From Myxococcales bacterium (GTDB lineage Bacteria > Myxococcota > Myxococcia > Myxococcales > JAKAPL01), in the NCBI GenBank assembly GCA_035508175.1, contig DATJNL010000021.1:1-57459 (forward strand): DNA of 57,459 bases. Direction: 5' to 3'. The translations under genes were made by a program, and so were the position numbers. Shown piece by piece: positions 2,337 through 25,592 of this stretch; the stretch's first letter is position 1, and each line of letters opens with the position of its first letter. The notes beneath the pieces were generated by a model. It saw only the letters and a program-made list of their open reading frames with translations. It made no database searches and was not told where the DNA came from.

Positions 2337-3662
2337 TTGGCCGCGTTTGCCAACGTCTTCAAGATCCAGGAGCTGCGGCGCCGGCTGATCTTCACGGTCG
2401 GCATGCTGGCGATCTACCGCATCGGCATCTTCGTCACGACCCCGGGCGTCAACCGGGAGGCCATGCAGGAGCTGATCAAGTCCGGCGGCCTCTTCGGCAT
2501 GTTCAACCTCTTCTCGGGCGGCGCGCTCGAGCAGTTCTCGATCTTCGCGCTCGGGATCATGCCGTACATCTCGTCGTCGATCATCCTCCAGCTCTTGACC
2601 GTGGTCGTCCCCACGCTCGAGAAGCTGCAGAAGGAGGGCGAGGCCGGCCGGCAGAAGATCAACCAGTACACCCGCTACGGCAACATCCTGCTCTCCATCG
2701 CGCAGGGCTACGGCATCGCCCGCTTCCTCGAGAACCCCGAGAACGCGCGCAAGGCCGCCGGGGTGGCGCTGCAGATCGTCCAGCACCCGGGCCTGCCGTT
2801 CGAGCTGATGACCGTGCTGACGCTCACCGCCGGCTCCACCTTCGTGATGTGGCTCGGCGAGCAGATCACCGAGCGCGGCATCGGCAACGGCATCTCGCTG
2901 CTCATCTTCGCGGGCATCGTGGCGCGCATCCCCTCGGCCATCGCCTCCACGGTGGCCCTCTACCAGAACAACCAGATCACCGAGTTCGAGCTCGTCATCC
3001 TGGGCGTCCTCATGCTGGTCGTGGTGGCGGCGGTGGTCTTCGCCGAGACCGGCTACCGCCGCATCCCCGTGCAATACGCGAAACGGGTCGAGGGGCAGAA
3101 GATGTATGGGGGGCAGTCGACCCACTTGCCGCTCAAGTTCAACACCTCGGGCGTGATGCCGCCGATCTTCGCCTCGTCGATCCTGCTGTTCCCGACCACG
3201 CTCGCGTCGTGGTTCCCGATCCTGGCGGCGTTCGGGCAGCACATGAACCGCGCCGACTGGCTCTACAACTCGCTCTACGTGGTCCTGACGATCTTCTTCG
3301 CGTACTTCTACACGGCGGTCACGTTCAACCCCATCGACGTCGCCGACAACATGAAGAAGAACGGCGGTTACATCCCGGGCATCCGGCCGGGCAAGAAGAC
3401 CGCCGAGTACATCGACCACGTGCTGTCGCGCATCACCTTCGGCGCGGCCATCTACCTGTCGGCGGTCTGCGTGCTCCCGAACCTGTTGCAGTCCCAGGCC
3501 GGGATCACGAGCTTCCGCTTCGGCGGCACCGCCCTGCTGATCGTCGTGGGCGTGGCCCTCGACACCGTGCAGCAGATCGAAGCCCACCTGATCACGCGCC
3601 ACTACGAGGGGTTCATCACCAAGCGCGGTCCCAGGATCCGGCGCCGCGCCGAGGCGGCGTAG
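2337..3662 (+). CDS. secY: Preprotein translocase subunit SecY
   Basis: The 441-aa multi-TM ORF has a TTG start one nt after the rplO stop and contains [18 protein letters not shown]...[15 protein letters not shown], conserved SecY motifs. Confidence 0.97.
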
Positions 3663-5714: not shown

Positions 5715-6182
5715 ATGGCCGAAGAGAAAGCCCCAGAGACCGCCGAGAAGCCCGCGGCCGCGCCCGAAGCGGCGGCTGCCGCCGGTGCCGCTGCCGGAGA
5801 AGAGGGCGGCAAGAAGAAGAAGAAGGTCAAGAAGAACGTCCTGAACGGTATCGTGCACGTGCAGGCCACGTTCAACAACACCCTGATCACCATCACCGAC
5901 GTGAGCGGCAACGTGATCGCCTGGTCGAGCGCCGGCTCGCGCGGCTTCAAGGGCAGCCGCAAGAGCACGCCGTTCGCCGCCCAGGTGGCCGCGGGCGACG
6001 CCGCCGCCAAGGCGATGGGTCACGGCCTCAAGAACGTGACCATCCGCGTGAGCGGCCCCGGCGCCGGGCGCGAGTCGGCGCTGCGCGCCATCGCCTCCTC
6101 CGGCCTCAAGGTCTCCGAGATCCGCGACGTCACCCCCATTCCCCACAACGGTTGCCGGCCGCCCAAGCGCCGCCGCGTCTAG
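5715..6182 (+). CDS. rpsK: 30S ribosomal protein S11 with an Ala/Glu-rich N-terminal extension
   Basis: The 155-aa ORF has the core [30 protein letters not shown], which is S11. An AAGGAA RBS precedes the ATG at 5715. Confidence 0.95.
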
Positions 6183-6191
6183 GAGAAAGCC

Positions 6192-6818
6192 TTGGCTCGT
6201 TACATCGACTCCGCGTGCCGCATCTGCCGGCGCGAAAATCTGAAGATGTACCTCAAGGGGGAGCGCTGCTACACCGACAAGTGCGCCATCGAGCGCCGCC
6301 CCTACCCACCCGGCCAGCACGGCCAGGGCCGCACCAAGTTCTCCGAGTACGGCGTACAGCTCCGCGAGAAGCAGAAGGTCAAGCGGATGTACGGCCTGCT
6401 CGAGAGCCAGTTCCGCAGCTACTACCACCGCGCCTCCGCCCAGAAGGGCAAGACCGGCGAGAACCTGCTGCAGGCCCTCGAGCTCCGCCTCGACAACGCG
6501 GTGTTCCGGCTCGGCTTCGCCGACACCCGCAACGAGTCGCGGCAGCTCGTGCGCCACGGCCACGTGCTCGTGAACGGCAAGTCGGTGAACATCCCGTCGT
6601 TCGCGGTGAAGCCCGGCACCACCATCGAGATCCGCGAGAAGAGCCGCAAGATCGTGCGCATCTCGGAGTCGCTCGAGGCGGTGGACCGCCGCGGCATCCC
6701 GCCCTGGCTCGAGCTCGACAAGAAGGCGTTCAAGGGCACCGTCAAGGCGCAGCCGGCGCGGGAAGACCTGACGATGCCGATCCAGGAGCAGCTGATCGTC
6801 GAGCTGTACTCGAAGTAG
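6192..6818 (+). CDS. rpsD: 30S ribosomal protein S4
   Basis: The 208-aa ORF begins [26 protein letters not shown] and has an S4 RNA-binding domain. Confidence 0.97.
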
Positions 6819-7977: not shown

Positions 7978-8544
7978 ATGCGGCACCAGAACATGGGGCG
8001 AAGGCTCGGTCGGACCACCGAGCACCGGCACGCGCTGCTCGGCAACCTCGTCGCGGCGCTGATTCACCACGAGCGGATCCAGACCACGCTGCCCAAGGCC
8101 AAGGAGGCCCGGCGGCTGGCGGAGAAGATGATCACGCTGGCGAAGCGGGCCGGGCTGCACCACCGCCGCCTGGCGGGCCGGACGCTCCGCGACGGCGACG
8201 CTCTCAGCAAGCTCTTCGCCACGCTGGGCCCGCGCTTCGCAAGCCGCGCGGGCGGTTACACGCGCATCGTGCGGCTGGGGCACCGGCTGGGCGACGCGGC
8301 GCCGATGGCGATCCTCGAGCTGGTGGAGCGCTCCCCGAAGGAGACCCCGGAGACCGGCGCCAAGACGGCGAAGCCCGCGAAGGGCGAGGCCGCCAAGGCG
8401 AAGTCCACCGGCAAGGCCGAAGCCAAGCCCGAGCCCAAGAAGAAGGCCGCCGCGAAGGCGTCGGCCAAGGAAGACAAGGCCGAGGGCGAGAAGAAGGCCG
8501 AGAAGAAGCCCGCGGCCAAGAAGGCGCCGGCGAAGAAGAAGTAA
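7978..8544 (+). CDS. rplQ: 50S ribosomal protein L17 with a ~70-aa Lys/Ala/Glu-rich C-terminal tail
   Basis: The ATG at 7978 lies inside track ORF 6853..8544. The product [37 protein letters not shown] is L17. The tail reads [34 protein letters not shown]...KKAPAKKK. Confidence 0.93.
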
Positions 8545-8600
8545 CCGGTCGGTCCGGTCTCGAACGGTCTGCGGCCCGCAGCGGCGAGCGTCGGGGTCTT

Positions 8601-9608
8601 CTGGCGCGCGTCGAAAGCTTCATGGAAGACGCGCTGGGGCCCGTCGCGCGCGTGCCATGGGCTCTGGCGCAGGCCGTGGGTCTTGGAGCGCGCGTTCGCG
8701 AGCCTCCAGCGCACGGCGAAGGCCTTCCATCGCGGGGGAGAGAGCTCGTTGGACGGGCGATGGAGCTCGTTGAACGAGCCGTCATCGGTCCAGCGCACGG
8801 CGAAGGAGGCCTGGCGCGCGTCGAAGGACGTCTGGCGCAGGTCGGGAAGGCTCTTGAACGCGCGCGAAGGCCCCCAGCGCGTGCGTGAGCCCTTCAAGCA
8901 GGTGCGGGAAATCCTCCAGCGCGTGAGCGAAGCCTTCCAGCGCGTGCGCAAGGGCCTCCAACACATGCGCAATGGCTTCTCCAGCCTGCGCAATGAACGT
9001 TTGCGCGCGTTCGACGAACCCTGGCGCGGGCGCGGGAACCTCCAGCCTCTCGCGTGGAGGGTCTGGCGCGTGCTCGCCGGGTTCTAGAACGCGCTCGCGG
9101 CTTCGTTGGAGACGCCCGCGGCCTTCTGGAACCCGCGCAAGGTCTTCCAGCGCCTGCTCGACGACCTCTGGAACGTGGGCTGGAGGCCCTGGCGCACGCG
9201 CGCGAAGACATTGAACGCGCGCAAACGGTTCGAGCGCGCGTCGTGGAGGCCGTTGCGCACGTCGTGGAGGCGTTTGCACGCGCGCTCGAAGCCTTCGCAC
9301 ACGTCGGGGAAGACCTTGCACGCGTCGTGGAGGCCTTCGCACGTGCGCTGGAAGCCTTCGCGCACGTCGTGGAAGACATTGCGCGTGTCGTGGAGGCGTT
9401 TGCACGCGTGCTGGAAGCCTTCATGCACGTCGTGGAAGACCTCGCACGCCTCGTGGAAGCGTTTGCGCGCGTGCTGGAAGCCTTCATGCACGTCGTGGAA
9501 GACATTGCACGCGTCGTGGAAGCCTTCGCGCGCCTTCTGGGCGCGATCGTACGAGCGCGAGAGCCGCTGGCACGCAGCCTGGAAGGCTTCGGGCGTCGCG
9601 GAGACCCG
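8601..9608. repeat. Degenerate tandem array of about 48 units of exactly 21 nt, with a 63-nt super-period in the 3' third
   Basis: Hand segmentation from 8601 in steps of 21 nt stays in register to 9608. Units 9399/9462 differ by 1 nt and units 9420/9483 are identical. The units contain 10-bp palindromes (GCACGCGTGC, CGCACGTGCG, GAAGGCCTTC). Confidence 0.85.
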
Positions 9609-9779
9609 CGCGGGGGCTCGCAACGCAGCACCCAGGACCCTCGCGACCTCGATCGACCCGGCCGCGGGGGGAGCCCACGCGCGGTTGACCTCGATTGGCC
9701 CGCCCACGAGTGGACTCAAGGGGTTGGCGACCTCGACGCACCCGCTGGTGGCAGGACTCAGCGCGCTGGTGACCTCCAC
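9084..9779 (-). CDS. Candidate heptad-repeat protein rich in His/Cys/Phe (FHDVHEG-FQHACKR-LHDTRNV units); the coding status is unresolved
   Basis: It has a GTG start. Wobble GC is about 86% over 42 hand-counted codons, tied with the + frame that shares the same wobble positions, and its codons are typical of high-GC genomes. There is no convincing RBS, and the ORF lies entirely inside the repeat tract. Confidence 0.3.
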   Translation of the reverse strand: MEVTSALSPATSGCVEVANPLSPLVGGPIEVNRAWAPPAAGSIEVARVLGAALRAPARVSATPEAFQAACQRLSRSYDRAQKAREGFHDACNVFHDVHEGFQHARKRFHEACEVFHDVHEGFQHACKRLHDTRNVFHDVREGFQRTCEGLHDACKVFPDVCEGFERACKRLHDVRNGLHDARSNRLRAFNVFARVRQGLQPTFQRSSSRRWKTLRGFQKAAGVSNEAASAF

Positions 9780-9938
9780 GGACCGGGCCGTGACAGCCCC
9801 TAACTCGTTGGAAGCACTTGCGAACCCGGCCGCGAAGGGGCACGAACCGCTGGCGACCTGGACGGACGCGGTCGTTCCCTGACTCGACGGGCCCGTGAGC
9901 TGCCCTGACCCGGCGGTGGCCCGACCAAAGCCGACCGC
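9645..9938. repeat. Seven units of exactly 42 nt, contiguous with the 21-nt array
   Basis: The motif GACCTCGA/GACCTCCA/GACCTGGA recurs at 9645, 9687, 9729, 9771 and 9855, with degenerate copies at 9813 and 9897. All are spaced 42 nt or a multiple of it. Confidence 0.75.
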
Positions 9939-9962
9939 GGGGCTCCCGCGGGTGGCCGTGGC

Positions 9963-11252
9963 CTACGGGGCCGCGGGCGTGGCCGGCGCGAGCTCGGTGA
10001 ACTGCGCGCCGAGCCGGTCCGCGATGCGCGCGCGCTGCTCGAGGAGAAAGGCGATGCGGCGCTGCAGCCTCGCCACTACCGCGGCGTCCGGGATCTTCGC
10101 CGCCAGCGCCGTCGCGAGCTCGCCTTGCGCCCGCGCCACCGTGGCGTCGATGGGCACCACGTGGATCTGCGTGGGCAGCTTCGCGTTCCGCTGCCGCGCG
10201 AGCGCGTTGTTGTCGGTCCACAGCGGCACCAGCGTCACCGGCCCGAGCTCCACGCGCGGCGGGCCCGCCGCGTACTGCCGCTTCTCGAGCGTCACCTCCA
10301 GCAGCACGCCGTCGCGCGTGTCGGCCTGGCTGTCCGGGTTCACGCCGGGCGCGTAGAGCCGGCTCTGATTCGAGATGAAGTTGCCGAGCGAGTACGCCAC
10401 GAGCGCCACGCGGCCGTCCGCCGCCGGGTACAGCTCGAGCGGCTGCAGCACGTGCGGGTGGCTCCCGAGGATCAGGCCGGCGCCCGCGTCCACCAGCGCG
10501 TGCGCGAGCTCCGCCTCGCCGGGGTCGGGCACCTTCGCGTACTCGGTGCCCCAGTGGATCGACACGATCACGAAGTCGGCCTGCTTGCGCGCGGCGGCGA
10601 TCGCGGCCGTCATCTCCGCCGGGTCCGCCGGGGCGACCCGCGGCGCCTTCGGATCGTCCACGTCGAGGTTCTGGTTGAAGCGCGCGGTGAAGCCGATGAA
10701 CGCGAGCCGGATGCCGTGCACCTCGAGGTACACCACGCGCTCCGCCTCGGCCCGGTCGCGCCCCGCGCCCACTTCCTGCAGCCCCGCCGCCAGCACGTTG
10801 GCCACCGTCTCGGCCACGCCCGCGCGCCCCTGGTCGAAGGCGTGGTTGTTCGCGCACGAGACCACGCCGAAGCCCGCGGCCTTCACCGCGGCGAGCACGA
10901 TGGGCGGCGCGTTGAACACGAACGGCTTCGTGCCGCGCCCGGCCTTCGGCGCCACCGGGAACTCGAGGTTCCCGAAGGCCAGGTCCACGCGGTGCAGCTC
11001 GGGCGCGACCGCGCTGAACAGCCCGTCGAAGCCGTCGTGGTTGGTGGACGCCCCCTTCACGCGCACGTCCTGCGCCGCCGCGGCGTCCTTCACCGCCTCG
11101 TGCATCATCACGTCGCCGGTGGCGGCCAGCGTGAGCGAGGCCAGGACCTTCGGAGCGGGCGCACCCGGCGCGAGCGGTGGCAGCGTGGCGGCGCATCGGC
11201 AAGGGAGGGCAGGGGGCGCCGAGAGGAACAGGGCCAGCAGCGCGGCGAGCAT
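9963..11252 (-). CDS. CapA-family (PGA_cap) metallophosphatase-like protein, secreted
   Basis: The 429-aa ORF has a signal-like N-terminus and the motifs ATGDVMMH, SCANNHAFDQG and SIHWGTEY...GSHPHV, typical of poly-gamma-glutamate CapA-type proteins. Confidence 0.8.
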   Translation of the reverse strand: MLAALLALFLSAPPALPCRCAATLPPLAPGAPAPKVLASLTLAATGDVMMHEAVKDAAAAQDVRVKGASTNHDGFDGLFSAVAPELHRVDLAFGNLEFPVAPKAGRGTKPFVFNAPPIVLAAVKAAGFGVVSCANNHAFDQGRAGVAETVANVLAAGLQEVGAGRDRAEAERVVYLEVHGIRLAFIGFTARFNQNLDVDDPKAPRVAPADPAEMTAAIAAARKQADFVIVSIHWGTEYAKVPDPGEAELAHALVDAGAGLILGSHPHVLQPLELYPAADGRVALVAYSLGNFISNQSRLYAPGVNPDSQADTRDGVLLEVTLEKRQYAAGPPRVELGPVTLVPLWTDNNALARQRNAKLPTQIHVVPIDATVARAQGELATALAAKIPDAAVVARLQRRIAFLLEQRARIADRLGAQFTELAPATPAAP

Positions 11253-11387
11253 CCGCGCAGTCTAGCAGGCCGGCGAGGCCGCCTCGACAATCGCTTTCCG
11301 CTGCCAACGGCTGGAGCAAGACCTGCAGCCGTCGGAACCGGAAGGCCTGTGGCCGCGGTCGGTCGCTGCCATCCTCACCCAGGCGAC

Positions 11388-11400
11388 TTGATGTTATCAA
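11388..11400 (+). promoter_or_regulatory. Candidate operator palindrome TTGAT-N3-ATCAA in an AT-rich patch
   Basis: TTGATGTTATCAA lies directly upstream of the ATG at 11404. The surrounding sequence gatgttatcaaaaaatgagatatatttc is the most AT-rich stretch I noticed in the window. Confidence 0.35.
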
Positions 11401-11403
11401 AAA

Positions 11404-12171
11404 ATGAGATATATTTCTGCGGTGCTCGACTACCTCGTCACCTCGAAGGCTCGCCGCCGGTTGCTGACGCTACTGTGGAGACAGGGGGCGTCCGGCTCGG
11501 CTTCTGCGCTGGCCCAGCAAGCGCACGTCGCCTTTGCGAGCGTGCACCGCGAACTGCAGGCGATGAAGCTGCTCGGCCTCGTCGTCTCGAGGCGGGAGAA
11601 CGCTGCCGAGGTCTTCCGAGCCAACGAGGCCTCGCCGTTTGCCCAGGTGCTGCACGAACTGTCGCGGCCGGTTCCATCGATGCTGGCTGCCGACCCTGCA
11701 GCGGTGCGTACGCGTGGCGAGCTGAGGACGCTTGGCGCTCCTCTCCTCGATCCCCCGGTCGATGTCTCGGAGGTCGAGGCCGCGCTCGTGCGAGGCGCCG
11801 CGTTGTCGCACCGGGATCCGACGGTCGCTCGCGTCCTGCCGCTGTGCTTCCATCGATCGGTGCGAGACCGGCACCTCGACGTCGACCGGCTCCTGCGCCT
11901 CGCCCGTGATTCGAGCGAAAAGCAGGCGGTCGGGTTCTTCCTGGATCTGACGGGATCGCTGTCGGGTGACCGGCGCCTGAAACGTTGGGCGTCACGCTTT
12001 CGGGATCGTCGATGCGCCGAGGGTGCGCGCAGCTTCTTCGTCGAATCCTCGCCGGCAGCGCGCGAAGCTGCGAGCCAGAACACACCGGCCGTGGCCAGGC
12101 GGTGGGGTTTGCGCATGAACATGGGCCTCGGCGCGTTCAAGTCGATGTACGAGAAGCACGTCGATGCGTAG
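11404..12171 (+). CDS. Winged-helix (ArsR/MarR-like) DNA-binding protein with an uncharacterised C-terminal domain; putative antitoxin or regulator
   Basis: The 255-aa ORF has an N-terminal wHTH-like stretch SKARRRLLTLLWRQGASGSASALAQQAHVAFASVHRELQAMKLLGLVVSRRE. Its 3' end overlaps the next gene by 8 nt (ATGCGTAG). Confidence 0.65.
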   Translation: MRYISAVLDYLVTSKARRRLLTLLWRQGASGSASALAQQAHVAFASVHRELQAMKLLGLVVSRRENAAEVFRANEASPFAQVLHELSRPVPSMLAADPAAVRTRGELRTLGAPLLDPPVDVSEVEAALVRGAALSHRDPTVARVLPLCFHRSVRDRHLDVDRLLRLARDSSEKQAVGFFLDLTGSLSGDRRLKRWASRFRDRRCAEGARSFFVESSPAAREAASQNTPAVARRWGLRMNMGLGAFKSMYEKHVDA

Positions 12172-12730
12172 CTACACGCCGGGAGACCTGCGCGTCTTCC
12201 TGAGAGCGGTGGACGCACATCTCGCGCGAACCGCCGAGCTCAAGGTCATGGGCGGAGGCGCCATCGCTCTCGCCTACGGTGTCCTCCTGAGCACCTCGGA
12301 CATCGACACGTTCGAGACGGATCTGGACGCCGTCGCAGACGCCATTCAGAAGGCGCAAGCGAGCACCGGGCTTCCCATCCAGGTGTCTCCGCTCGGCGGG
12401 AGCGTCGGCGACTGGCCCGAGAACAGCGGGGAGCGCTTGATTCGCGTGATGCCGGAGCTGCCGAGGTTGTCGATCTTTGCCCTCGAACAGCACGATTTGG
12501 CACTCAGCAAGAGCGTCCGAGGTTACGAGAACGACCTCGCTGCGATCGAGCAGCTACACGGGCGCCTCGCGCTCGACAGGGACGTCCTCGTGAGGCGCTA
12601 CGTGCACGAGATGGCCCACGCAATTGGTGACCCGGTTCGTCTCGATCGCAACTTCATCCTGATGATCGACCGTCTCTTCGGCGAGACCGCCGCTGAAGAG
12701 GTAGAGGTGCTGCTGGCCTCCCGCCGCTGA
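12164..12730 (+). CDS. Minimal nucleotidyltransferase (MNT/AbiEii/DUF6036-like)
   Basis: The 188-aa ORF carries a pol-beta NTase signature, GGGAIALAYGVLLSTSDIDTF (G[GS]-x9-13-DxD), and is translationally coupled to the wHTH gene. Confidence 0.7.
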   Translation: MRSYTPGDLRVFLRAVDAHLARTAELKVMGGGAIALAYGVLLSTSDIDTFETDLDAVADAIQKAQASTGLPIQVSPLGGSVGDWPENSGERLIRVMPELPRLSIFALEQHDLALSKSVRGYENDLAAIEQLHGRLALDRDVLVRRYVHEMAHAIGDPVRLDRNFILMIDRLFGETAAEEVEVLLASRR

Positions 12731-12824
12731 TTCTCGTGGCCAGCCCGTGAGACCTGGTTGGCGCGTTCGATGGGGGTCTTGCTCGGCCGATCCTGGAGGA
12801 ACTGCTTGTAGCGGTAGACGGGGC

Positions 12825-14810
12825 CTAGCCGGGGCAAATTCCCGCGTCGCCGCACGAGAAAGGAATGGCCGGCAGGCAACCGTAGCCGAGCACGCACTCG
12901 CCGAGGAAGCATGCCGGCGTTGGGCAATCGAGGTCGGCGCCGCACGGGCTGCCGGTCTCCGTGCAGGCCCCGGCGTCGGTGCAGGTATCTGCCGGGCAGT
13001 CGGCTGTCGTACGGCAACCGGCGGTCCCCACGAGGCCGCCGTCGGCACACCAGCACGGAGTTCCTACCAGGCTAGGGCCGCCGCAGGCGCAGATCCCGAG
13101 ATCCGCGGGGACGCCCAAGGGCGTGCACACGAAACCGCCTGGGCAAGCGCCAGAAGCGGAGCAGTCCGCCGCGCAGATGAACCCACAGCCTCCATCATCG
13201 CAGCCGTCGAGGTCCCGCTGCGCGGGGAGACAGGTGCCGCCCGCATTCAGGCAGGCCGTTGAAGCCCCAGGGGCACAGGTCAAGCACGCAGGGGCCGTCC
13301 GGGCACAATCGTACCCGCAGCGCCCTGCGTCGCAGGCCTGTCCGGCAGAGCAGGAAGCCCCACACGCTCCGCAGTTGGCGAGGTCGGCCTCCTCATTCGT
13401 GCAGGTCCCCGCGCAGCACGCGCCGCTCTCGCATTCGCCGGCACTGACGCAAGGCATGCCGAGGCCGCGCGTTGGTGCCGGAGCCGCGGCTGCAACCGGT
13501 AGAAGCTCCATGACCCGTCCGTCCTGGAAGCCTGCGTCGGGGGTCCCCGTGTCGTTCCAGAAGAGCGTCCCCGAGGTGGCGACCAGCGCCGGGGGGCTGA
13601 CGGACGGCTGTCCCCCGACCAGCAGCGTGGGCGCCCCTCCATCGATCCGGATCGATTCGATTCTCACGTCGGTCTGGGACAGCACGTTGTCGGTCCAGAA
13701 GATCGTTGTGCGGCCCAGCGCCAGGGTCCCTGGCCATGTCAGAGACGACGCCAGGGTGACGGTCGCGCCCCCGTCTCGGGCCACCGCCATGAGGGTGCCG
13801 TCTCCGGGTTGGGGGATGGCGCCCGGGACGCAGCCGTACTCGCCCAGGTTCAGCCAGTAGAGATTCCCTTGGTCCAATGTCAGAGCCGTGGGCTGGTGCT
13901 GGCCTGCTGCCAGCACGCGAGGCCGGCCGCCGGACAGGGGGCGAGCAAGGATGGCGCCATCCGTACACTTCGGAGGAGAGCCCGAGGCGGCCCAGTAGAG
14001 ATAGCCGTCGTCGATGACGAAGGCGGTTGCCCCACTGGCGAGCAGAACCCGTCCGCCATCCAAAGGATCAGCTCGGGGCAAGCGGACGATGTCCCCGGCC
14101 TGGTAGGGCGGTCCGGAGTACAGCCATTCGGCGTCGACGTAGGATCCTTGTTCCCCATGCGCCTGGACCAGAGAGAACGGGCCACCATCTAGCGATGTCG
14201 ACGCGATCCCATAGTTGGCCCCGAACCACCAGAGCGCCCTTCCGTCCACAAAGGGGGCTTCTGCCCATTGGTTCTCCTGGTTCTCCGCCGAGACCGGCGA
14301 GAGGCCTCCCCCCTCCAGGTCGACTTGCCAGACGATTGGCTCCCCGGGATTCGCGCCGAAATTCGTGCCAAACAAAGCCGGTCCCCAGAGGGCCAAGCCG
14401 CTGGCGGGCTGTTGGGTCACGGTGATCAGGCAACGCCCGCGAATGCAAGCACTGGGGCCAGCGTCCGTCGGAGACGCGGGGCACGCGAAGCCGCAGGCAC
14501 CGCAGTTCGCGGGGTCGGCCAGGGTGTCGACGCATGCACCTCCGCACGCCGTCTCTGCACCGCCGTCGCTCGGCGGGCAGGCGCATTCGCCCGCGGTGCA
14601 AACGCTCCCCGTGAGCGATGCCTGGCAATCGAGGTCGGATCCACATCCGCCATCCCCGCCGTCCCGCCCTCCGTCGGCACCCGGCGTTCGCCCTGCATCC
14701 TGCCCGCCATCCGTCTGCCCACCATCGGTCTGGCCGCCGTCCCCGGGCGGCGAAGGCGGCTTGCAGGCGGAAGCCACAACGGCCAGCAACATGAAGGCTG
14801 CGGGCTTCAC
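12825..14810 (-). CDS. Cys-rich lipoprotein with a beta-propeller (YWTD/LYW-type blades) and a C-terminal Cys-knot-like region
   Basis: The 661-aa ORF has a GTG start and the lipobox VVASAC. Blade signatures are GYLYWAA, GNLYWLN, TTIFWTD and GTLFWND. The motif NCGACG-x2-C occurs twice. The start lies 3 nt after the upstream stop. Confidence 0.8.
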   Translation of the reverse strand: MKPAAFMLLAVVASACKPPSPPGDGGQTDGGQTDGGQDAGRTPGADGGRDGGDGGCGSDLDCQASLTGSVCTAGECACPPSDGGAETACGGACVDTLADPANCGACGFACPASPTDAGPSACIRGRCLITVTQQPASGLALWGPALFGTNFGANPGEPIVWQVDLEGGGLSPVSAENQENQWAEAPFVDGRALWWFGANYGIASTSLDGGPFSLVQAHGEQGSYVDAEWLYSGPPYQAGDIVRLPRADPLDGGRVLLASGATAFVIDDGYLYWAASGSPPKCTDGAILARPLSGGRPRVLAAGQHQPTALTLDQGNLYWLNLGEYGCVPGAIPQPGDGTLMAVARDGGATVTLASSLTWPGTLALGRTTIFWTDNVLSQTDVRIESIRIDGGAPTLLVGGQPSVSPPALVATSGTLFWNDTGTPDAGFQDGRVMELLPVAAAAPAPTRGLGMPCVSAGECESGACCAGTCTNEEADLANCGACGASCSAGQACDAGRCGYDCARTAPACLTCAPGASTACLNAGGTCLPAQRDLDGCDDGGCGFICAADCSASGACPGGFVCTPLGVPADLGICACGGPSLVGTPCWCADGGLVGTAGCRTTADCPADTCTDAGACTETGSPCGADLDCPTPACFLGECVLGYGCLPAIPFSCGDAGICPG

Positions 14811-14813
14811 AGG

Positions 14814-15362
14814 TCAGGGCAGGGCGAGGGTGCAATAGACGGTCGGAGGACCTGCGTCTCCGTACGGCAGCGTCTCGGCACAGCGGTAGCAAACGAGATC
14901 GCCGAGTGACCCCGCGTCGAAGCCGACGAGGCCGGTCGCCGGCGGAGCTTGCGAGGTGAAATAGGGCGCGCAGTCGCAGATGTCCCCCAGCGTGCACCCG
15001 TCCGGAACGGCGCGGCACGCACCCGGGTAGACGCCCGAATGTTCCTCGCTGGTCGCGAAGTACTCGCAGAGCTCGGCGGAGGGGCAAGCGAGGCACGGCG
15101 CCACGGTTTCCCCGCCGGCGTCGTCGACGTAGAGGCACTGGACCGGGCTACTGCAAGGCAGCAGGCCGGCGTCTCCACCGCTCGGGACGAACCAGCCAGT
15201 GCCAGCGTCCGGGAGCAGTACTCCGAAGCCGCCGGCATCCACGGAGCCGGGACCTACGGCCGCGGGGAGGTTCTCCGGCGCAAGCGAGTTGGGCGAGCAC
15301 GTGGTCAACAGGGGCAGAAAGCACGTCAGGGTGCCTAGCTTCCTACGAGCCACAAGCGGCAT
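14814..15362 (-). CDS. Cys-rich lipoprotein, function unknown
   Basis: The 182-aa ORF has the lipobox PLLTTC, 14 further Cys residues and good high-GC codon usage. Confidence 0.75.
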   Translation of the reverse strand: MPLVARRKLGTLTCFLPLLTTCSPNSLAPENLPAAVGPGSVDAGGFGVLLPDAGTGWFVPSGGDAGLLPCSSPVQCLYVDDAGGETVAPCLACPSAELCEYFATSEEHSGVYPGACRAVPDGCTLGDICDCAPYFTSQAPPATGLVGFDAGSLGDLVCYRCAETLPYGDAGPPTVYCTLALP

Positions 15363-15981
15363 TAGAACAAACGCCAGACGGGCAGGCTACCCCGCACCCG
15401 CCGCAGTTGGTGCGAGTTCCTATCGAAGAAGCGGGGTCACCCCCTTCGAAGGCGAACCAATTCCTCTCGACGAGGCAGTAGTTCTCTTCGAAGAGGAACG
15501 AGCTCCTCTCGCAGAAGCGGCCGTTCCTTTCGAAGAGGAACGAGCTCTTCTCGCAGAGGCGGTCGTTCCTTTCGAAGAGGAACGACCTCTTCTCGCAGAG
15601 GCGGTCGTTCCTTTCGAAAAGGAACGAGCTCTTCTCGCAGAAGGGGTTGTTCCCTTCGAAGATGAACCAGCTCCTCTCGCAAGGGAGGTGGTTCCTTTCG
15701 AAAGGGAACGATCTCTTCTCGCAGAAGCGGTCACTCCTTTCGAAGGGGAGCGATCTCCTTTCGCAGAAGCGGTCACTCCTTTCGAAAAGGAACGAGAGCC
15801 TCGCGCAGAAGCGTTCGTTTCTTTCGCGAGGGACCGACCTGTTCTCCCTCCGAACCGCCTTGCCGACCTTCCTGCACGGGTGCGGTGACCCACCGCAGCC
15901 TCGCATCATCGACCTTCGCTCGCGGGCTGGCGAGCGATCGTCGCCGACGAGCGGAGGACTTCGACGCCTTTGGCCTGACAC
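15343..15981 (-). CDS. Candidate 14-aa-repeat protein (FLFERNDRLCEKRS, about 10 copies) ending in an NCGGCGVACPSGVC motif; coding status uncertain, possibly a gene remnant
   Basis: The repeat part has high GC3 (13 of 14 codons per unit). The C-terminal motif matches the NCGxCGxxC motif of the downstream 661-aa protein. Its 3' end overlaps the next gene by 20 nt. It has no signal peptide, and the + frame that shares its wobble positions is also open. Confidence 0.3.
   Translation of the reverse strand: MSGQRRRSPPLVGDDRSPARERRSMMRGCGGSPHPCRKVGKAVRRENRSVPRERNERFCARLSFLFERSDRFCERRSLPFERSDRFCEKRSFPFERNHLPCERSWFIFEGNNPFCEKSSFLFERNDRLCEKRSFLFERNDRLCEKSSFLFERNGRFCERSSFLFEENYCLVERNWFAFEGGDPASSIGTRTNCGGCGVACPSGVCSNAACGS
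15417..15857. repeat. Array of about 21 units of 21 nt (about 10 units of 42 nt) alternating two palindromic unit types
   Basis: Type X is CGTTCCTTTCGAAGAGGAACG, with 7-bp arms CGTTCCT/AGGAACG around TTCGAAG. Type Y is AGCTCTTCTCGCAGAGGCGGT, with CTTCT-CGC-AGAAG. Boundaries at 15522, 15564, 15606, 15648, 15690, 15732 and 15774 are exactly 42 nt apart. Confidence 0.85.
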
Positions 15982-16046
15982 CGCGCCGAGCCCGCGAGAC
16001 GATCCTCTCGCCGCGCTCCGCGAACCGTGCTAAGCGCTGCGGCCCC

Positions 16047-16460
16047 ATGAGATCCTCGAGAGGGAAGATTGCGGGAGCCGCGCTGTGCCTCCTCTTGGCC
16101 TGCGCCTCCGACCCTTGCAGCGACGGCGCGTCCGCCGCGCAGAACGTCGCCAACTACATCGCGGGCTGCGCCGCCAGCGATCAGGGCTTCTTCGGCGGCT
16201 ACTCGCCCTGCTTCGATCAGAACGCGTGCGAGACGAACTTGAAGTCGTGCTCGCAGGCCGATCGCGCGGTGCTCGAGGCCACGGCGAAGTGCCAGAACGA
16301 GTACGCCGCGAGCAACGCGTGCACGTTCGCGGAGCTGCAAACCTACGACTCCTGCGCGGCCTCGGCGACCACGGCGGCCGACGGGGGGAGCGCTCTCTCG
16401 CCTGCCTGCGCCGAGGCCTTCTCGCAGAACCCTGGCAGCTGCGGGGCCGACGCCGGGTGA
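16047..16460 (+). CDS. Small Cys-rich lipoprotein
   Basis: The internal ATG at 16047 of track ORF 15885..16460 gives MRSSRGKIAGAALCLLLACASDPC, with lipobox LLLAC, and about 11 Cys in the mature part. Confidence 0.7.
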   Translation: MRSSRGKIAGAALCLLLACASDPCSDGASAAQNVANYIAGCAASDQGFFGGYSPCFDQNACETNLKSCSQADRAVLEATAKCQNEYAASNACTFAELQTYDSCAASATTAADGGSALSPACAEAFSQNPGSCGADAG

Positions 16461-25429: not shown

Positions 25430-25444
25430 GAGGGCCGGAATGAA

Positions 25445-25592
25445 GGCCTCCCTCTCCCCTTCAGGGGAGAGGGCAGTGGTGAGGGCCCATCACCAGGCCT
25501 CCCTCTCCCCTTCAGGGGAGAGGGGTACTCCCTTCGCGCCCCTCACCAGGTCTCCCTCTCCCCTTCAGGGGAGAGGGCAGGGGTGAGGGGTA
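25445..25592. repeat. Three REP-like palindromic elements (perfect 10-bp stems) between convergent genes; likely a bidirectional terminator or mRNA stabiliser
   Basis: CCCTCTCCCC-TTCA-GGGGAGAGGG occurs at 25450-25473, 25501-25524 and 25554-25577. The third copy is nested in a longer palindrome, CCCCTCACC...GGTGAGGGG. Confidence 0.8.

Follow-up and report, generated by a model that had tools for sequence, protein, structure and literature searches.

The window, that is the whole stretch of 57,459 nt analysed here (Myxococcales bacterium, 70% GC), carries a 1.4-kb spacer between two converging genes, that for ribosomal protein L17 and a capA-like gene, whose coordinates are collected in Table 1 together with those of the features between them. 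By codon position the GC content of rplQ is 0.74/0.52/0.96, and L17 adjoins capA in relatives too. The 429 aa of capA are also the length of its two closest relatives (P0055 and P0056, 76-78% identical) and, because of this equality, its TAG looks, on comparison, like a normal stop.

Table 1. Genes, repeat segments and open frames of the rplQ-capA region (strand is left empty for features without orientation)
Feature	Position	Strand	Description and basis
rplQ (ribosomal protein L17)	7978..8544	+	Final gene of the rpoA-rplQ operon; ORF/translation
Left degenerate part	8604..9086		23 in-register 21-nt units, ~50% unit-to-unit identity
A-R-V-V-E-A-F heptad ORF	9054..9803	+	249 aa, GTG start; best coding candidate if anything is translated
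Palindrome GTTCTAGAAC	9081..9090		Sequence
FHDV/EGF-heptad ORF	9084..9779	-	231 aa; codon-aligned antisense of the 9054..9803 frame
Central degenerate units	9087..9233		7 x 21 nt; register table
Young tandem array	9234..9548		Five 63-nt units (3 x 21), 80-85% alike; TRF and repeat-family search
Transition units, then 42-nt periodic stretch	9549..9926		Same 21-nt register
capA-like gene (PGA_cap)	9963..11252	-	Converges on rplQ; Pfam PF09587, E = 5e-76

The repeat array of the spacer

Positions 8604-9926 are taken up by about 62 in-register units of 21 nt, with sub-arrays of 42 and 63 nt, the unit length being a multiple of three in every case. From 8604 to 9590 the register table gives 47 units with zero phase slip, and the 42-nt periodic stretch (9633-9926, seven units with the motif GACCTCGAC) continues in the same register. 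Identity reaches 0.65 at lag 21 and no more than 0.24-0.25 at lags 18 and 24; a signal of period 21 extends over 8547-10017. In lag and axis scans the left part matches the right part at 0.52 as reverse complement and at 0.47 in direct orientation, a weak preference.

Two dyad axes, 10.5 nt apart, are present per unit. Unit dyad symmetry is 0.43-0.44 versus a mean of 0.28, and long-range complementarity on the dyad lattice is about 0.5 versus a median of 0.28. When 26-nt windows are folded, the minimum energy is -6.0 kcal/mol for units and -5.2 for shuffled sequence, the unit hairpins being no better than shuffled, so a REP-like RNA role stays putative. Folded as a whole, the array scores z = -10 against shuffled controls in which the repeat itself is destroyed. 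Alternating purine/pyrimidine tracts number 25, at a fixed unit position, versus 3.1 +/- 1.4 per 987 nt elsewhere.

The array motif does not occur outside the array within the 57-kb window, Rfam gave no match to the array, and no Pfam or NCBIfam family reached threshold for its frames. A second array with 21/42-nt periodicity lies in the window at 15420-15840 and is likewise without coding signature.

Related lineages and the homologous copy

In three related lineages (capA identity 71-78%) the capA-rplQ spacer measures only 33 nt (L087/L088), 35 nt (L091/L092) and 6 nt (L095). In L089 it consists of 22 in-register 21-nt units of about 52% GC, and an ORF called over them has a GC content by codon position of 0.54/0.67/0.51, with a real-gene GC3 of 0.93; this array is clearly non-coding in composition. 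In L093 a 63-nt tandem repeat begins right behind capA and runs off the end of the contig. The units in L089 and L093 are unrelated to those of the window. On the contigs compared, the array is shown to be an optional, lineage-specific filling of the spacer, two further lineages to have arrays of the same period and different sequence in its place, and gain or loss to involve whole units (21, 63 or 126 nt). Head-to-tail units, whole-unit change in copy number, and presence or absence at the same site, the marks of an intergenic tandem repeat, are all found here.

The array has a single homologue, a metagenomic copy (L001/L082) whose locus is unrelated to this one and whose neighbours, in L001, encode an RDD-family protein and a small membrane protein. 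Identity is 77% over 940 nt (886 aligned nt versus L001), and a search of 5.8 billion protein clusters plus 1.8 billion representatives returned, as the sole relative, the same element in one other organism. The near-identical strains L001 and L082 differ by 126 nt in the array, its copy number shifting in 63-nt steps. The indels that distinguish the window from L001 and L082 are only of 21 nt or multiples of 63 nt (a 21-nt indel versus L001), and no small indel is present across about 900 nt at 23% divergence. The segment 9549..9926 is absent from L001, and none of its frames has a coding signature.

Substitutions versus L001 number 52/75/71 by phase, with no excess at the wobble position, and over the whole element the amino-acid conservation of all frames (z from -1.3 to +1.3) does not exceed that given by the same substitutions placed at random. 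Within the central units substitutions peak at coordinate mod 3 = 1, which is the second codon position for the FHDV/EGF minus frame as well as for the ARVVEAF frame; of all frames there, that of the minus-strand ORF 8782..9405 alone is somewhat conserved (z about +3). This is the ORF in which an EGF-type motif had been pointed out, and LEGF-type heptads are indeed present. In the left half every frame has a stop in at least one of the two genomes, and none has protein-level constraint. Of the options in a preliminary description, non-coding DNA is the one favoured here, and the pattern it had named as a sign of such DNA, stops scattered through all frames of a homologue, is encountered in the left half. 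The first G, C and G of the left-half unit are nearly invariant between the genomes (1/22, 2/22 and 1/22 changes), and across the 21 positions of the unit, substitution rates do not differ significantly (p = 0.10). In both genomes GC3 of the array frames, 0.86 and 0.67-0.73, is under that of all real genes (0.93-0.98).

Open frames through the array

What had drawn attention to the locus is a minus-strand frame that does run nearly stop-free from 9965 to 8256: translation of its 570 codons gives the TAG at 9084-9086 as the sole internal stop, and capA, 9084..9779 and 8256..8993 share this one frame, as described. It terminates, again as described, within rplQ, 288 nt inside the gene, and its 8256-8544 part is an antisense frame of rplQ that shares the wobble position of that gene. 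The chance of sharing capA's frame is 1 in 3. Between 9962 and 9780 the frame has no start codon, and no homologue of the stretch 9780-9962 was found. One stop at most is present in 15.8% of all 568-codon windows (six frames, whole window). Stop-to-stop stretches of at least 276 codons number 89 in the window, with 71 of the 89 lacking gene-like composition, and all six frames have an ORF of more than 200 aa across the repeat. At 70% GC, single-stop openness is weak evidence for a gene. Since the units are G+C-rich and stop-free in most frames, every frame runs open, and the 1.7-kb minus frame is most likely a by-product of the repeat array. Its single TAG is part of a palindrome and most likely not a lesion: CTAG in GTTCTAGAAC yields TAG on both strands (minus 9084-9086, plus 9085-9087), and L001/L082 have CTCGAG where the palindrome of the window has CTAG/TAG.

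On balance the spacer is probably a non-coding, minisatellite-like block of weakly dyad-symmetric, phase-locked units. Tandem amplification of a short palindromic 3′-end element, by slippage or unequal recombination, would have generated the array, which may persist as a structured buffer, transcribed or untranscribed, between converging transcription units in the manner of REP/BIME elements, or may be functionless. Strict 21-nt phase would stem from unit-wise turnover, possibly together with a helical-phasing constraint, 21 bp being two turns of the DNA helix. Counter to the non-coding reading are the conservative wobble variation of the plus ARVVEAF frame in the 63-nt array, the lack of small indels, which is unexpected for neutral DNA, the unit lengths in multiples of three, and a gene-like codon-usage LLR of 0.45 per codon for the minus frame in the right arm.

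The main rival reading, possible though doubtful, is that the right part of the array is a real plus-strand gene (9054..9803), co-directional with rplQ, for an orphan protein consisting of one long amphipathic alpha-helix of heptads with a 21-residue super-repeat, and possibly a coiled-coil or surface-binding structural protein. The minus frame would then shadow it in antisense, and the left half would consist of decayed repeats or serve as a non-coding leader. In the 63-nt array 19/36 differences are at third codon positions of this frame (variable columns 14/7/5), dN/dS is 0.36 in the tandem part, and amino-acid replacements within the array are conservative (z +3.3 to +3.7, window and L082), a signal not given by three control arrays. 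The GTG start is at the homologous position in L001, in both genomes the ORF has the orientation of its upstream neighbour and closes short of the following gene, and the restriction of indels to unit size would fit reading-frame constraint. Among PDB entries its product is similar to designed coiled coils (8qad, E = 9e-11), with sub-threshold matches to the helical region of MCE-family proteins. AlphaFold2 gives one long helix (residues 2-182, pLDDT 93-98 in the repeats), but this is non-discriminating, as any heptad-periodic sequence is predicted as helix.

Against such a gene, GC3 is 0.73 (0.67 in L001), versus 0.93-0.98 for native genes, and codon-usage LLR is 0.08 per codon. The first 60 residues are unconstrained (dN/dS 1.08, z about 0), the C-terminal tails are unrelated between the genomes, and over the whole element z is 0.0. 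No relative was found in a protein-database search covering up to 8,000 word-sharing candidates. In both genomes the 13 nt preceding the GTG are free of any Shine-Dalgarno-like motif, and no sigma-70-like promoter was found for the frame. The same-site arrays in L089 and L093 would encode unrelated peptides. This frame had been set aside earlier on GC3, and the hand counts behind that decision were reproduced (for 9250-9549, 0.73 at its wobble position and 0.86 at that of the minus frame, coordinate mod 3 = 0), but by substitution pattern it is the better coding candidate.

That 9084..9779 is itself a real gene, for a 231-aa His/Cys/Phe-rich heptad protein (FHDVHEGFQHACK) with its normal end at TAG 9084-9086 and converging on rplQ, is improbable. 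GC3 of 0.86 would point that way, as would the right-arm LLR per codon, which compares with 0.54 +/- 0.19 for real genes. L001 and L082 both keep this ORF open, and in L001 a gene caller chose the frame (P0001). However, a single amplified 21-codon unit accounts for most of the codon usage, which so carries little weight; elsewhere the LLR of the frame is 0.00 (left arm) and -0.15 (9591-9962). Versus the homologue, dN/dS is 1.66 in the right part and 1.4 in the left, and amino-acid conservation is below random expectation, both overall (z -1.2 to -1.3) and within the tandem array of the window (z -1.7 to -3.0, BLOSUM and identity), where unit differences cause radical changes (C/R/H, D/R/H/E, G/V/R). 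Start codons and N-termini are non-homologous between the two genomes, and the stop is unconserved: in L001/L082 the frame stops about 40 codons later, with further stops beyond, and its left half there contains two stops. No family or PDB relative was found. AlphaFold2 gives the 231-aa ORF a mean pLDDT of 64.9, its first 45 residues, a non-heptad N-terminus, being poorly predicted. The earlier case for coding by this frame, made from its wobble GC and its His-, Cys- and Phe-rich heptads, is not supported by these comparisons.

Another improbable alternative makes the array a platform of phased binding sites, as in iteron or centromere-like arrays, for a putative dimeric protein of DNA-binding or nucleoid type. 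Strict 21-nt phase kept, without small indels, across units just 50% alike is consistent with it, as are the dyad symmetry of the units, the fixed-position alternating tracts and the near-invariant G, C and G of the left-half unit. In neither genome, however, does a replication, partition or regulator gene adjoin the array, there is no plasmid or phage match to it, unit positions do not differ significantly in substitution (the p value given above), and the same-site arrays of relatives have unrelated units.

Hardly to be entertained is one long minus-strand gene that a nonsense codon at 9084 has broken or that recoding reads across, the pseudogene and recoding options of the preliminary description, perhaps with capA extended by it. 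Only the shared frame and single stop speak for it. Against it, capA matches its two closest relatives in length, no start codon is available downstream of it in 9780-9962, three related lineages have room for just 6-35 nt after capA, the downstream portion of the frame runs antisense through rplQ, the stops of L001 are elsewhere with no constraint on either side of the TAG, and open frames this long are common in the window. Pseudogene, recoding and capA read-through are contradicted by the homologue stops, the length of capA and the short spacers of relatives.

Known systems and significance

For the probably non-coding array several known systems offer partial parallels. As with shadow ORFs of G+C-rich bacteria, stops are rare at 70% GC and the minus frame lies codon for codon antisense to another open frame, but the openness here comes from a stop-free intergenic repeat unit and not from a proven opposite-strand gene. 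Mycobacterial MIRUs, among VNTRs and minisatellites, are similarly intergenic, with units that are multiples of three, varying copy number, ORFs through the units, and presence or absence in relatives. MIRUs are 46-101 bp, lie between co-directional operon genes and are dispersed in many copies, whereas here about 62 units of 21 nt, seen within 57 kb of genome, separate converging genes. REP/BIME, the palindromic extragenic repeats of enterobacteria, share the location after 3′ ends of converging genes and dyad-symmetric units of 20-40 nt, and a role in mRNA 3′-end structure or as transcriptional buffer is a conceivable further likeness. The units of the window, however, are contiguous and phase-locked, not scattered, and their hairpins have no extra stability over shuffled sequence.

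Heptad-repeat (coiled-coil) proteins encoded by 21-nt repeats are approached by the plus frame in its 3/4 spacing of hydrophobics and its predicted long helix, but differ in that here there is no natural homologue, codon usage is atypical, the termini are unconstrained and the units weakly palindromic. Plasmid iteron and centromere-like arrays are likewise built of direct repeats, about 20 bp long and two helical turns apart; the present array is apparently chromosomal, between housekeeping genes, with no rep or par nearby and far more units.

A wider proposal, tentative and rather unlikely as a whole, is that an uncultured Myxococcota clade harbours an undescribed class of phase-locked, dyad-symmetric arrays of 21-nt units (seven codons, or two helical turns) that repeatedly fill one converging-gene spacer with different units, and also occur at unrelated loci, with 9234-9548 perhaps becoming, or being, a translated amphipathic heptad-repeat protein.

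For annotation, a long open frame of high GC3 across a repeat in a G+C-rich genome is not evidence for a gene, and gene callers, as in L001, take the frame with the best wobble composition even against the substitution pattern. The object of interest is the array itself, a kilobase of 21-nt units never out of phase, optional, and recurring at the same site with different sequences. If its phase lock reflects selection, it would point either to a role of the DNA that depends on helical periodicity or to tandem repeats as a source of new heptad-repeat proteins; should the array be turning into a translated heptad protein, satellite DNA would here be seen giving rise to new coiled-coil ORFs.

A phase-locked array between rplQ and the capA-like gene

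The window has a G+C content of 70%, and in it rplQ and a capA-like gene converge on a long spacer (table). The preliminary description had followed a minus-strand frame from 9965 down to 8256, here the minus frame, and had placed three ORFs in it, among them the 231-aa ORF 9084..9779. The ORF listing confirms the common frame, translation bears out TAG at 9084-9086 as its single internal stop, and the GC3 figures were recovered (0.86, vs 0.73 for the plus-strand frame of the 249-aa ORF 9054..9803, the ARVVEAF frame after its A-R-V-V-E-A-F heptads). The observation is correct; as evidence it is weak. Over the array region all six frames hold ORFs of more than 200 aa, 15.8% of the 568-codon windows, taken over all six frames of the window, contain no more than one stop, and of its 89 stretches that stay open for 276 codons or more, 71 are not gene-like in composition. 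The 8256-8544 part of the minus frame is antisense to rplQ, and an ORF scan of the 9780-9962 part found no start codon. The TAG sits within a palindrome, GTTCTAGAAC, and is therefore a stop on both strands. The minus frame, which encodes FHDVHEGFQHACK, is the codon-aligned antisense of the ARVVEAF frame, which encodes VVEAFAR and HVVEDIAR.

Set out in rows of 21 nt (register table), the spacer is one phase-locked array. From 8604 to 9590 there are 47 units of 21 nt with zero slips, identity at a lag of 21 nt rises to 0.65 where lags 18 and 24 give 0.24-0.25, and the 21-nt periodicity extends over 8547-10017. Units of the left and central parts are about 50% alike unit to unit and are old; the 63-nt array to their right is young, and the 42-nt periodic stretch beyond, with no coding signature in any frame, keeps an identical register. 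The units have weak dyad symmetry, with complementarity of about 50% (vs a median of 0.28) about every axis of a 10.5-nt lattice, from which follow the similar-looking heptads on both strands and the fold z of -10 for the whole stretch. Though the stems of the RNA fold lie on a common axis at 9112.5, one giant hairpin tipped by the TAG palindrome was rejected because every lattice axis gives such complementarity, a property of the unit and not of a specific long hairpin. Alternating purine/pyrimidine runs are a classic Z-DNA-forming sequence type, and 25 such tracts of at least 8 nt (e.g. GCGCGCGT, GCACGCGT) occur in 8604-9590 at a fixed unit position, vs 3.1 ± 1.4 for every 987 nt in the rest of the window. 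An Rfam search and promoter and terminator scans of the element gave nothing useful.

Features of the window and of the loci compared with it
Locus	Feature	Position	Strand	Details
Window	rplQ	7978..8544	+	converges on spacer of 1,418 nt
Window	PGA_cap/capA-like gene	9963..11252	-	Pfam E = 5e-76; converges on rplQ across the 1,418-nt spacer
Window	five 63-nt units	9234-9548		80-85% alike; tandem repeat detection
Window	seven 42-nt units	9633-9926		GACCTCGAC motif; main array's 21-nt register
Window	second tandem array, 42-nt period	15420-15840		21-nt sub-period, 8.7 copies; unit GTTCCTTTCGAAGAGGAACGA GCTCTTCTCGCAGAGGCGGTC
Window	51-nt tandem repeat	8419-8520		in rplQ C-terminal tail (8380-8541)
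Window	53-nt tandem repeat	25444-25589		2.8 copies; internal hairpin CCCTCTCCCC...GGGGAGAGGG
L087/L088	capA-rplQ spacer			33 nt
L091/L092	capA-rplQ spacer			35 nt; palindromic hairpin
L095	capA-rplQ spacer			6 nt
L089	22 in-register 21-nt units	6331-6792		capA 76% identical; spacer ~500 nt; CCTTCGATCGGCGAAAGAAGG-like, ~52% GC
L093	63-nt tandem repeat	6040-6185		capA 76% identical; palindrome GTGTGAAGGCTTCACAC; from ~70 nt past capA
L083	12-copy 21/42-nt array	3002-3248		downstream of dnaG-rpoD
L084	12-copy 21/42-nt array	3138-3464
L085	12-copy 21/42-nt array	3209-3478		downstream of ribonucleotide reductase gene

A homologous element and tests by frame

Against 5.8 billion protein clusters the 231-aa ORF had one match, P0001, called in the metagenome contig L001, and an exhaustive profile search over 1.8 billion representatives contributed nothing beyond unrelated repeat proteins. 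Of its 53 matches, the nine inspected apart from P0001 were repeat or low-complexity proteins of no relation, some of eukaryotic appearance; they were rejected as homologues because repeats inflate their E-values. For the ARVVEAF ORF no relative appeared among the word-sharing candidates compared. P0001 has an RDD-family gene on one side and a gene for a small membrane protein on the other, with a type I restriction system adjoining, a context unrelated to that of the window. The L001 DNA is collinear with 8594-9533 at 77% identity (main alignment 886 nt); it is missing the 42-nt units, and indels between it and the window are confined to a single 21-nt unit and to multiples of 63 nt. A second contig from L001's organism, L082, is identical save for two additional 63-nt units: between L001 5701-5954 and L082 3943-4325 the flanking genes and the aligned element are identical and the array differs by exactly those two units, which is a copy-number polymorphism. 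Searches of GTDB species genomes, of plasmids and of viral contigs gave no further copy of the element, and JGI metagenomes yielded L082 only.

Substitutions between the window and L001 fall by phase as 52/75/71, with no wobble excess. By Nei-Gojobori, dN/dS for this pair is 1.66 in the right part and 1.4 in the left for the minus frame, 1.73 and 1.02 for the plus frame having the minus frame's wobble position, and 0.61 over the right part for the ARVVEAF frame (0.36 in its tandem part, 1.08 in its first 60 codons). Not one frame of the left half is free of stops in both genomes. When sites were shuffled with substitution number and type held, no frame showed amino-acid conservation beyond chance over the whole element (z -1.3 to +1.3), the minus frame standing at -1.2 as a whole and at -2.0 within the tandem part. 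Codon usage in the minus frame points the opposite way to the substitution tests, its log-likelihood ratio per codon being 0.45 over the right arm (0.54 ± 0.19 in real genes, no more than 0.31 in wrong frames) and 0.00 and -0.15 beyond it; the right-arm value reflects essentially one amplified 21-codon unit. In both genomes, GC3 of every candidate frame is below that of every real gene.

Two gene pairs were also tried and rejected: convergent paralogous genes meeting at CTAG, the left plus ORF of which (8683..9087) has three stops in L001 and dN/dS of 1.02, and divergent genes that would lead away from the centre on either side. The left-hand minus frame of this second pair (ORF 8782..9405) has no constraint in the left arm and some in 9087-9233 alone (z about +3), an unexplained pattern.

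The spacer in relatives, and arrays elsewhere

Homologues of the capA-like gene, 71-78% identical and from uncultured Myxococcota, keep the capA-rplQ-rpoA order. The ORF called over the L089 array, a 182-aa hypothetical protein, is clearly not native coding sequence, since its GC by codon position (0.54/0.67/0.51) is unlike that of real genes (GC3 0.93). The L093 contig ends inside its 63-nt repeat, probably an assembly break. Similarity of the L089 and L093 units to the window's unit is not significant, nor is a GAAGG/CCTTC core common to all three. Because relatives' spacers vary and their units are dissimilar, spacer content is optional and of fast turnover; what recurs at the site is a 21/63-nt period, not a peptide.

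The window's second array is strongly dyad-symmetric in its unit (0.63), below the genome in GC and nearly open in six of six frames, with no coding signature. Dyad-symmetric arrays on three unrelated metagenome contigs of 60-64% GC (L083-L085) are annotated as hypothetical proteins, a hint that 21/42-nt arrays are widespread and regularly mistaken for genes. Elsewhere in the window, the rplQ tail is Lys/Ala/Glu-rich, the period of the 53-nt repeat is not a multiple of three, and in the 5 kb of 11300-16400, where G+C drops to 0.61-0.66 in places, no ORF passes a filter for gene-like composition (GC3 > 0.88 and GC < 0.58 at second positions); that region may be of different origin or of weak coding density.

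Readings of the array

Phase lock, unit-wise copy-number change, dispensability among relatives and a lack of protein-level constraint over most of the array are direct observations, and a non-coding, minisatellite-like array is, by somewhat better than even chances, what the spacer represents, its open frames being judged by-products of a stop-free, G+C-rich unit. The main unexplained point is that there are zero small indels at 23% divergence. Neutral DNA at such divergence should have gathered several, and two alternatives, a plus-strand heptad protein and a DNA-phasing function, consequently stay alive.

That the array encodes the heptad protein is possible while on the unlikely side. Variation within the 63-nt array is the one coding-like signal: 19 of 36 differences from the unit consensus are at ARVVEAF third codon positions, positions 3, 2 and 1 have 14, 7 and 5 variable columns, and the encoded residues stay the same or change conservatively (z +3.7 and +3.3 in the window, +3.3 and +3.6 in L082). 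Identical differences read in the minus frame are radical (C/R/H, D/R/H/E, G/V/R; z -1.7 to -3.0 in the window), and three control arrays (left arm, 42-nt stretch, 15420-15840) lack such a wobble signal. The plus ORF has a GTG start homologous in the window and L001, and in both genomes it runs in the upstream gene's direction and ends before the next gene. AlphaFold2 predicts a single helix (pLDDT 93-98), and a helix for the minus frame too (mean pLDDT 64.9), as would be expected of any heptad periodicity, so that these predictions do not discriminate. The plus ORF is similar to designed coiled coils and matches no family above threshold. The plus frame is the translated one, if anything here is.

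The 231-aa minus-strand gene of the preliminary description, contradicted by the homologue, is quite improbable. A DNA-phasing function, to which the lack of small indels also points, is at least as doubtful. Pseudogene, recoding or capA read-through has next to no likelihood, being contradicted by the homologue; capA, at 429 aa, is exactly as long as P0055 and P0056, the two relatives closest to it.

The finding as first described is an example of frames that stay open spuriously because the DNA is rich in G+C. In placement and behaviour the array is like bacterial VNTRs/MIRUs and REP/BIME elements; it differs from them in its strict 21-nt phase over some 62 units, its weakly palindromic character, the reappearance of arrays of equal period at a single site across lineages and the existence of a copy, 77% identical, at an unrelated locus. 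Searches of the literature turned up no account of such arrays, and Rfam and Pfam have no entry for them. A short palindromic 3′-end element, amplified in tandem, may have given rise to the non-coding array, which could serve as a structured buffer where the two transcription units converge, or as a binding platform with helical phasing.
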